Assembly: GCF_003334355.1 (NCBI RefSeq)
Contig: NZ_QOWP01000085.1
Origin: Escherichia coli
GTDB taxonomy: Bacteria > Pseudomonadota > Gammaproteobacteria > Enterobacterales > Enterobacteriaceae
DNA length: 1,567 nt
Reading direction: 5' to 3' (one strand)
This document shows positions 1 to 1,183 of the stretch, piece after piece. How positions within the stretch are numbered: position 1 is the stretch's first letter; each line of letters begins with the position of its first letter. Under the pieces are notes generated by a model that was given only the letters and a program-made list of their open reading frames with translations, was not told the DNA's origin and did no database searches. The translations under genes were made by a program, and so were the position numbers.

Positions 1-1145
1 GACGATGCGGCTGCCGTTTTTGAGGATTCTGCACGGGTTTCCGACGCTTTCGCGTTCGTTTCGGATGTCTTCGCTGCGGAAGCAGACTTCGCTGCTGCGC
101 TGGCCTGTACAGCGGCTTCGCCAGCATTCGTTGTGGCTGTTGAAGCTGACGATGCAGCACTTTCTGCCGATTTTCCGGCGGCGGTGGCACTGGCTGAGGC
201 CTGCCCGGCACTTGTTGACGCGGCACTGGCAGATAATGCAGCCGCTGTTTTTGAGCCTGCCGCAGCTGAGGCGCTCTGTCCCGCTGCCGTTTCAGAAGAC
301 CTGGCGTTCGTCTCGGACGTTTTTGCCGCCTTCGCAGAATTTGCTGCCGCCGTTGCCGAGGAAGCGGCACTACTGGCGCTCGAGGCTGCGCTCGTTTCTG
401 ATGATTTTGCCGCCTCTTTTGAGGCCGCCGCATCCCGGGCTGAGGTGGCAGCTTCTGACGCCTTCGTGGTCGCGGCGGATGCAGAAGTGGCTGCTGATTG
501 TTGTGACGCTGCCGCATTCGTTTCTGACGTTTTCGCCGCAGCGGCACTGGTAGCTGCCGCGCTTTTTGAGGACTCTGCAGCAGCAGCACTTTTCGATGCT
601 TCACTGGCCTTTGTTGATGCCGTTCCTGCGCTGGAAGATGCTGACTGAGCAGATGATGCAGCCTGTCCGGCTGACGTGCTGGCGGCACGAGCTGAGCCTG
701 CAGCATCGGTTGTATGAGTTGCCGCCTCACTGGCAGATGTGCTGGCATCACTGGCTGACTTCTTCGCGGCTGCCGTGTTCTGTGCCACTGCGGACGCGTT
801 ACGCGCCACCTCTTCCACCATCAGTTCAAAACGTCGCAGAGCCTCCGGACGGGCATCATCCTCCGTCATGGCACCGAGAAAATCATTCAGCGTACCGGGT
901 CGGGAATCTTCATACACGGTGATGGTCCCGGCATGTGACGGCGGGAATCCTTCCACCAACAGAATAACGCTGTACTGACCGTACTCAACGTCCATGCTGT
1001 AACGCCCGGCTTCATCCGGATTTTCTGAGGCCAGCGTGTTCACCACCACCGCGGTGCTGTTACGTTTTGCTTTCAGCTGGATTGTGCAGTTCTGTACCGG
1101 TTTTCCTGTGCCGTCTTTCAGTACACCTGAAATCTTTACTGCCAT
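1..1145 (-). CDS. stf: Side tail fibre protein Stf (lambda orf-401-like), N-terminal 381 codons; 3' end runs off the window at position 1
   Basis: Hand translation of the minus strand from ATG (plus-strand 'cat' at 1143-1145) gives MAVKISGVLKDGTGKPVQNCTIQLKAKRNSTAVVVNTLASENPDEAGRYSMDVEYGQYSVILLVEGFPPSHAGTITVYEDSRPGTLNDFLGAMTEDDARPEALRRFELMVEEVARNAS, followed by a long Ala/Ser/Thr-rich region. The frame is open for 381 codons with no stop to the window edge. The N-terminus matches my recollection of lambda Stf/orf-401 and the gene sits directly downstream of lom as in lambda. Not in the ORF track because it lacks an in-window stop. Confidence 0.9.
   Translation of the reverse strand, partial: MAVKISGVLKDGTGKPVQNCTIQLKAKRNSTAVVVNTLASENPDEAGRYSMDVEYGQYSVILLVEGFPPSHAGTITVYEDSRPGTLNDFLGAMTEDDARPEALRRFELMVEEVARNASAVAQNTAAAKKSASDASTSASEAATHTTDAAGSARAASTSAGQAASSAQSASSSAGTASTKASEASKSAAAAESSKSAAATSAAAAKTSETNAAASQQSAATSASAATTKASEAATSARDAAASKEAAKSSETSAASSASSAASSATAAANSAKAAKTSETNARSSETAAGQSASAAAGSKTAAALSASAASTSAGQASASATAAGKSAESAASSASTATTNAGEAAVQASAAAKSASAAKTSETNAKASETRAESSKTAAAS
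3..806 (-). repeat. Protein-level heptad repeat array within stf (about 38 contiguous heptads, consensus x-[T/S]-S-A-[S/E]-x-A)
   Basis: Splitting Stf residues 114-379 into consecutive heptads gives Ser at position 3 in 31 of 38 heptads, Ala at position 4 in 25 of 38, and Ala at position 7 in 37 of 38, with no phase shift across the array. Counts are from hand translation. The DNA itself is not an exact tandem repeat. Confidence 0.7.
807..1145 (-). other. Stf N-terminal non-repetitive domain (residues 1-113), the part of phage tail fibres that usually attaches to the tail
   Basis: Residues 1-113 have mixed composition (aromatics, Pro, charged residues) with no heptad periodicity, in sharp contrast to the downstream Ala/Ser array. 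The attachment role is taken from general knowledge of lambdoid and other phage fibres, not shown by this sequence. Confidence 0.5.
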
Positions 1146-1156: not shown

Positions 1157-1183
1157 AAAAAAGCCCGCCTGAACAGGCGGGCT
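1157..1183 (-). terminator. Rho-independent terminator downstream of lom (minus-strand orientation)
   Basis: Minus-strand RNA would read AGCCCGCCU-GUUC-AGGCGGGCU followed by UUUUUU: a perfect 9-bp GC-rich stem (plus-strand 1162-1170 pairing with 1175-1183), 4-nt loop, and a 6-U tract (plus-strand A-run 1157-1162). It lies 27 nt after the lom stop. In the plus orientation no U-tract follows the hairpin. Confidence 0.65.

Follow-up and report, generated by a model that had tools for sequence, protein, structure and literature searches.

A recurring KTSETNA heptad in the alanine- and serine-rich shaft region of a lambdoid prophage side tail fibre

The stretch of DNA considered here (hereafter the window) comprises 1,567 nucleotides of an Escherichia coli genome (NCBI RefSeq assembly GCF_003334355.1, contig NZ_QOWP01000085.1) and carries on its minus strand part of the tail module of a lambdoid prophage, namely the 3' part of lom followed by the first 381 codons of stf, the side tail fibre gene. 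Our subject is a seven-residue peptide, KTSETNA, that occurs three times in the shaft-coding region of stf and that a preliminary description, made from the letters alone, had singled out as a set of old duplications lying in one heptad phase. The window is laid out as follows, with residues numbered in Stf.

1..1145, minus strand: coding sequence of stf (side tail fibre), first 381 codons, from the translated open reading frame, which starts at 1145 and continues beyond the left end of the window
744..1145, minus strand: N-terminal attachment (collar) domain, Stf residues 1-134, matching Pfam phage_tail_N (PF08400, E = 8.8e-72)
3..806, minus strand: Ala/Ser-rich heptad array of pattern x-x-S-A-x-x-A, the putative PCoil or proximal coiled-coil shaft, Stf residues 114-381 within the window, from column counts
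ending at 1210, minus strand: 3' part of lom

The window has a 100% identical counterpart in a prophage of E. coli 2018-05-5CC (NZ_AP027886.1), in which the gene is annotated as stfR, "prophage tail fiber N-terminal domain-containing protein", and it aligns with many lambda-like phages at 95-97% identity. At that identical locus the genes stand in the order J-lom-stf-tfa, the same order as in PhiR30_1 and in lambda, and over residues 1-94 Stf matches the collar domain solved for the Ur-lambda side tail fibre (PDB 9e7m, E = 9e-52). Judged by its PF08400/collar domain and by this gene order, the window protein is a lambdoid side tail fibre, Stf, with a full length of 1132 amino acids in the source genome. 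Ur-lambda gpStf is orthologous to it, the collar being nearly identical over residues 1-94. The virion context, four trimeric Stf fibres per particle and OmpC as the outer-membrane receptor, is known for Ur-lambda only (PMC12617516); the distal receptor-binding part of the window protein lies outside the window and differs from that of lambda.

The array that begins at residue 114 runs past the window to residue 463, and residues 114-463 form 50 unbroken heptads. Over these 50 heptads Ala occupies column 7 in 47 cases and column 4 in 34, and Ser occupies column 3 in 37. The autocorrelation of residue identity reaches 0.38-0.46 at every multiple of seven, the only distances at which it peaks, and stays near 0.2 at all others. 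A higher-order period of 70 or 84 residues, the distances that separate the KTSETNA copies, was considered and rejected, the autocorrelation being similar at all multiples of seven. Leu, Ile and Val are nearly absent from the array, and the canonical hydrophobic core, with Leu, Ile or Val at positions a and d, is not what is found: a is Ala in 47 of 50 heptads and d is Ser in 37 of 50. The array works like a coiled coil, but one with a core of small residues. Coiled coils with Ala-rich cores exist elsewhere, in the honeybee silk fibroins and in the alanine-zipper part of E. coli Lpp, where Ala or Ser, in place of Leu, Ile or Val, fills a, d and a flanking position. The Stf shaft differs from both, since honeybee silk forms a heterotetramer and Lpp is short; we claim no sequence relationship with either.

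Other heptads recur in phase as well: STSAGQA twice (residues 156 and 310), [ST]TKA[ST]EA three times (177, 226 and 415), ESSK[ST]AA twice (191 and 373) and ASSASSA three times (254, 380 and 387), and the shaft looks as if it were built from a small vocabulary of heptads.

The way in which the columns tolerate substitution fits a coiled-coil assignment in which positions a, d, e and g would correspond to columns 7, 3, 4 and 6. In a set of 62 distinct close relatives, columns 3, 4 and 7 show variabilities of 0.004, 0.003 and 0.012, and columns 1, 2 and 5 show values of 0.042-0.067. Between the window and lambda, non-synonymous changes number 9, 8, 5, 1, 11, 11 and 1 at columns 1 to 7, avoiding columns 4 and 7 and being fewer at column 3, against synonymous changes of 7, 8, 7, 8, 7, 8 and 13, a distribution that we regard as even. 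On these counts positions a, d and e are the most strongly constrained.

A region of this kind has been described before. Ghosh et al. (2012) gave the name PCoil to the low-complexity region that follows PfN (PF08400) in EPclA and EPclB, prophage collagen-like tail-fibre proteins of E. coli O157:H7; fragments of EPclA comprising PfN and PCoil are trimeric by size-exclusion chromatography with multi-angle laser light scattering and alpha-helical by circular dichroism, with a melting temperature of about 49-52 C, and PCoil has a seven-residue period and allele lengths that differ by multiples of seven (PMC3368898). Stf resembles it in two respects, since a PF08400 domain is likewise followed by a low-complexity, Ala/Ser-rich region, and this region has a period of seven and a length that varies in steps of seven. 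It differs in that the PCoil period is "loose" and extends over some 100-145 residues, whereas the Stf array is strict and spans 350 residues (50 heptads), and in that the array is followed by a distal fibre of the lambda/T4 type instead of collagen; nor is the KTSETNA motif to be found in the PCoil paper (PMC3368898). In Ur-lambda, whose gpStf collar domain has been resolved (Wang et al., 2025, Sci Adv, PMC12617516; PDB 9e7m/9mgh), the model of the fibre is trimeric and comprises a proximal coiled coil over residues 102-393, a hinge and a distal part; its atomic description covers residues 1-94 only, the shaft being an AlphaFold3 model fitted to tomograms (PMC12617516). Our search for a solved structure of the shaft returned none, only the N-terminal 94 residues having been solved. 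Three things had thus been published earlier (PMC3368898, PMC12617516): the heptad nature of the region, its trimeric coiled-coil form and its variation in length by whole heptads. What is left as possible novelty is the signature heptad, together with a role that it might play in locking the register of the helices.

We regard it as very likely that the window encodes the proximal shaft of Stf, a parallel, trimeric, alpha-helical coiled coil of 50 uninterrupted heptads, that purifying selection acts on this shaft, and that its length changes by whole heptads. In such a shaft small residues would occupy both the core and the core-flanking positions, with Ala at a, Ser at d and Ala at e. The three KTSETNA copies and the degenerate units in the same phase stand within it as follows.

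513..533, minus strand: KTSETNA copy 1, residues 205-211, codons AAA-ACG-TCA-GAA-ACG-AAT-GCG
303..323, minus strand: KTSETNA copy 2, residues 275-281, codons AAA-ACG-TCC-GAG-ACG-AAC-GCC
51..71, minus strand: KTSETNA copy 3, residues 359-365, codons AAG-ACA-TCC-GAA-ACG-AAC-GCG
387..407, minus strand: KSSETSA, residues 247-253, a degenerate version of the motif in phase with the copies; lambda has KSSETNA here
282..302, minus strand: RSSETAA, residues 282-288, immediately following copy 2; column 4 is Glu
30..50, minus strand: KASETRA, residues 366-372, immediately following copy 3; column 4 is Glu

The positions, plus-strand coordinates and codon strings given in the preliminary description are exact in the Stf translation, as are the spacings of 70 and 84 residues (10 and 12 heptads), and KSSETSA, RSSETAA and KASETRA do lie in the phase that it assigned to them. 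The heptad register that it reported for the three copies is likewise real, but it follows from the unbroken array of 50 heptads, which that description did not state, and is thus not special to KTSETNA. What is special to KTSETNA is how often it recurs. The column frequencies of the array predict 0.003 copies of it, and not one of 5000 column-preserving shuffles produced any heptad of at least five different letters three times; its recurrence is non-random. In favour of chance recurrence in a low-complexity sequence rich in Ala, Ser and Thr it can be said that low-complexity heptads such as ASSASSA do come up three times in 2.5% of the column shuffles. It might also be supposed that the motif is a product of reading frames on the opposite strand, because long open reading frames do run along the plus strand at 5..553 and 133..648. 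Yet the substitutions track the minus-strand frame and the heptad columns, so that selection acts on that frame and not on the antisense reading frames, and the motif is kept in hundreds of relatives. We consider both chance and an antisense origin already refuted. The antisense frames themselves (182 and 171 amino acids, from 5-553 and 133-648) overlap the shaft-coding region and are the counterpart of lambda's annotated "orf206b"; since substitutions follow the other strand, they look like by-products of GCN-rich codons.

The statement that the peptide has been kept while the DNA has drifted is well founded. Each pair of copies shares three of seven codons, against 2.71 expected if codons were drawn independently from the codon usage of the coil, and differs by no amino acid; between the copies the synonymous sites are fully randomised and the peptide is maintained. 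The copies are old, because copy-specific codons are common to lambda: those that separate copy 205 (TCA-GAA) from copy 275 (TCC-GAG) are identical in lambda and PhiR30_1, and copy 1 occupies the same position in lambda orf-401 with the same codons except for the last Ala codon. Recent slippage, or a DNA tandem repeat made by slippage, was excluded in agreement with the preliminary description: Tandem Repeats Finder at a minimum score of 30 reports no arrays, and the copies form a family of direct repeats with no more than 75-82% identity over 28 nt, 210-252 nt apart and at spacings that are multiples of 21. Where that description went further and attributed the copies to old duplications under purifying selection, the selection stands and the duplication is plausible for this protein rather than demonstrated. 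The unit common to all three copies is AAKTSETNA and nothing more (nine residues), and an extended duplication around them was rejected, as the best in-phase window of 21 residues is identical at 16 positions, a maximum that shuffles reach in about 8% of cases. Because the flanks have no excess similarity, common descent of the copies and repeated selection of a preferred heptad are inseparable.

Comparison with lambda and with more distant relatives places the copies in a wider frame. The shafts of the window protein and of lambda are 82% identical over 35 shared heptads, and in lambda orf-401 KTSETNA likewise stands at residues 205 and 275, with KSSETNA at 247. The shaft of the window protein is longer by 105 residues (15 heptads), which arithmetic at 1.5 A per residue converts to about 16 nm, and copy 3 lies in this extra segment. 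For the family at large, 1.84 billion cluster representatives were searched and the best 150 examined, motif frequencies being taken across clusters at 50% identity. Exact KTSETNA heptads number 0-6 per protein among these 150. In the 24 representatives with at least two copies, all 42 adjacent pairs are in phase at spacings of 2-16 heptads, and with a looser motif pattern 121 of 124 pairs are. The tests that the preliminary description had put forward for its claim are thus mostly passed, positions 205 and 275 being conserved in lambda and the copy pairs lying in register. KTSETNA is moreover the commonest in-phase heptad of the family, accounting for 45 of 640 heptads in distinct contexts where the next most common accounts for 12. 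It is preceded by Ala-Ala in 58 of 63 contexts, and at column 4 of the heptad that follows it Glu, Gln or Lys is found 71% of the time, compared with 36% elsewhere (Fisher p = 2e-5, with instances that are not independent of one another). A full-text literature search found the string KTSETNA in no paper, and the signature heptad as such appears to be undescribed in the searchable literature. A side product of the survey were the giant proteins P0212, P0215, P0217 and P0234 (2539-4436 amino acids), which have up to 17 Ala/Ser heptad segments in separate phases with other sequence between them; none of these four contains KTSETNA.

Length variation in the family was followed as the distance from an N-terminal anchor, ELMVEEV, to a C-terminal anchor, GIVQLSS. 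In 26 of 31 cluster representatives this distance is 136, 143, 157, 248, 255, 311 or 360 residues, values that are congruent modulo 7, and in gapped alignments 17 of 17 indels are multiples of seven. One relative, P0127, lacks 112 residues (16 heptads), the junction falling exactly between KSSETSA (247) and KTSETNA (359). In two others, P0163 (residues 185-310) and P0165 (184-316), a block of 63 residues (nine heptads) has been duplicated near-perfectly, with 28 of 28 residues identical over four heptads and two KTSETNA heptads in each block, which is evidence of recent duplication; the duplication of whole-heptad blocks is a real process in the family. The copy number of KTSETNA and the length of the shaft very probably change through insertion, deletion or duplication of blocks of whole heptads, changes that preserve the register of everything downstream.

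The preliminary description had named length variation in other than multiples of seven as a ground for refuting its claim. Steps of seven hold for the 26 representatives and fail for some others, which count against the reading that we favour. P0143, P0144 and P0157, from three related clusters, have lost 253 residues in a deletion made at a TAAA microhomology, so that AQNTAAA is joined to SSASSAA, the shaft is very short and the register is shifted by one residue; out-of-register deletions therefore do persist in the databases. P0156 also lies outside the multiple-of-seven class, and slippage by three residues in either direction at ASS or AAG repeats is seen in 3 of 110 close relatives. (P0182 is off-class as well, probably because the anchor was matched to a second copy of the motif.) The three relatives with slippage, P0024, P0087 and P0028, carry a three-residue ASS deletion or AAG insertion at shaft residues ~321-324 and 386-389, with the register broken downstream, and in P0028 the third KTSETNA is shifted to phase +3. 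Such alleles may represent genuine stutters or stammers, or else errors of assembly.

The junction in P0127 invites the thought that the copies are there for the DNA rather than for the protein, as patches of homology for in-register recombination that alters the length of the shaft or swaps fibre modules. All 17 inferred indels being multiples of seven, and the coil being common to mosaic fibre genes, would agree with this. But most indel junctions lie elsewhere, the copies, at 75-82% identity over 28 nt and with no long exact DNA match between them within the gene, are a poor substrate for homologous recombination, and selection for evolvability is a weak explanation for the conservation of amino acids. 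We hold this account to be improbable.

Why this particular heptad should be retained is a different question. It is possible that KTSETNA has no role of its own and is simply the ancestral (or archetypal) form of the shaft repeat, of which the heptads made of Ala and Ser alone are decayed descendants, its copies surviving under the general constraint on any coiled-coil heptad and having by chance stayed unchanged. Such an account is encouraged by P0163 and P0165, where blocks have recently been duplicated and most heptads are of the type K-x-S-E/Q-T-x-A, by the recurrence of other heptad words (STSAGQA x2, ASSASSA x3, [ST]TKA[ST]EA x3) and by the fact that in divergent relatives copy 275 is conserved no more than an average heptad. 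However, with synonymous sites fully randomised, the outward positions b, c and f (Lys, Thr and Thr) should then have drifted as they have in other heptads, yet all seven residues are identical in the three copies, and across the clusters KTSETNA outnumbers every other heptad nearly fourfold. On balance an archetypal unit without a function strikes us as somewhat unlikely, if by no means far-fetched.

The same outward residues might instead mark a binding site. Solvent-exposed Lys (b), Thr (c) and Thr (f) are fully conserved across the copies, as they would be in an epitope, and a coil that bears the motif is also found behind other N-terminal domains (PHROG matches phrog_22609 and phrog_3299), so that KTSETNA could be a repeated docking site for an assembly factor, for a neighbouring fibre or virion protein, or for an enzyme that modifies Ser or Thr. 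However, no partner is known, the cryo-electron microscopy and tomography study of Ur-lambda reports nothing bound along the proximal shaft (PMC12617516), and both the number of copies (0-6) and the distance between them (2-16 heptads) vary freely, unlike what a fixed stoichiometric site would be expected to show. A docking site is in our estimation very improbable.

A more appealing scenario is that KTSETNA serves the coiled coil itself. As the signature heptad of this shaft family it has Glu at e and Asn at g in place of the usual Ala, and Lys at b, with purifying selection holding the peptide while synonymous sites randomise. Three helices of Ala and Ser are nearly featureless, and a polar belt of this kind could stabilise them and fix their axial register, perhaps through contacts from Asn (g) to Glu or Gln (e') of the next heptad and, within a helix, from Lys (b) to Glu (e). 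The single observation that speaks for these contacts is the enrichment of Glu/Gln after KTSETNA, and we put forward the role as a register lock tentatively. The complete account, in which a coiled-coil shaft under purifying selection changes by whole heptads and is locked in register by KTSETNA, we would give an even chance of being right. A further reading, in which KTSETNA together with the E/Q-bearing heptad that follows it forms a specific element of phage fibre shafts, either a polar lock between helices that sets the register and stability of trimers with small-residue cores or a repeated docking epitope, and in which it would be kept in fibres of differing attachment domains and perhaps extend to fibres resembling T7 gp17, seems unlikely. 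The arrangement is not that of the known trimerisation motif R-h-x-x-h-E, because on inspection g before each copy is Ala, and the basic residue, Lys at b, stands three residues before Glu. In R-h-x-x-h-E, which is attributed to short coiled coils by Kammerer and colleagues in 2005, Arg reportedly sits at g, followed five positions on by Glu at e, around hydrophobic a and d.

Further observations weigh against the complete account, beyond the off-register lengths described above. Of the 150 representatives, 109 have no exact copy, a number that includes many fragments and proteins without a shaft, and in relatives of 50-80% identity copy 275 is conserved only to an average degree, copy 205 being among the best conserved heptads. 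KTSETNA is therefore not indispensable, and the motif is recurrent rather than positionally fixed. Three identical landmarks, moreover, cannot tell one heptad from another, and only the unequal spacing between them could set a register. The AlphaFold2 model of the monomer, built on an alignment of 22 sequences and of low confidence (mean predicted local distance difference test score 57.7), is helical over 98-280 and 284-455 and folds back at 281-283, just after the second KTSETNA, with confidence below 50 at that point. This break is probably an artefact of modelling a single chain of a trimer; the authors of the Ur-lambda study obtained a similarly folded prediction and rejected it against their tomograms (PMC12617516). 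We also considered whether KTSETNA might be a helix break or hinge and found no support for it, the model being helical through copies 1 and 3 and its sole break being of low confidence.

Matches beyond the lambdoid fibres are weak. The tail fibre of phage T7, gp17 (PDB 7boz and related), has a shaft rich in Ala, Ser and Asn in which HQSEVNA aligns with KTSETNA (x-x-S-E-x-N-A), and 9cod_A, a fibre protein that carries an SGNH esterase domain, shows KVSETNA in a comparable stretch. At E = 0.28 to 0.64 (0.28 for HQSEVNA of gp17) these matches could reflect composition alone and do not establish homology, and a literature search for PDB code 9COD returned nothing relevant.

What the analysis adds is of modest practical value. 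A reading of the raw sequence correctly found a heptad-phased, selectively maintained motif whose underlying biology was published in 2012 and 2025. The strict array amounts to a natural series of shaft lengths, from 136 to 360 residues between the anchors, that could guide the engineering of fibre length in lambda-based phage tools, and the signature heptad offers a cheap, testable candidate for whatever keeps three nearly featureless helices in register.

Several features of the prophage lie apart from the shaft. The C-terminal end of the full 1132-residue Stf of E. coli 2018-05-5CC (L002 6423-9821) has repeated H-x-H "His box" motifs, GAHTHS, GNHSHS, GAHAHT and GSHGHT, which resemble fibre tips of the T4 gp37 type. 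In PhiR30_1 (L001 4423-7816) stf is annotated as three pieces, the first of which stops just past the shaft (TTKKG*, residue 468); this side-fibre gene is disrupted, which recalls the frameshift of laboratory lambda. The prophage of E. coli 2018-05-5CC adjoins pinQ, ydfK, ynfT and a truncated ydfJ, which corresponds to the Qin site of K-12. Finally, the minus strand carries a strong intrinsic-terminator hairpin at window positions 1162-1183, with a stem of 9 bp (seven GC pairs) followed by a run of T; placed after the lom stop (1210) and before the stf start (1145), it ends only 17 nt upstream of the stf ATG and is annotated as a terminator in some phage records.

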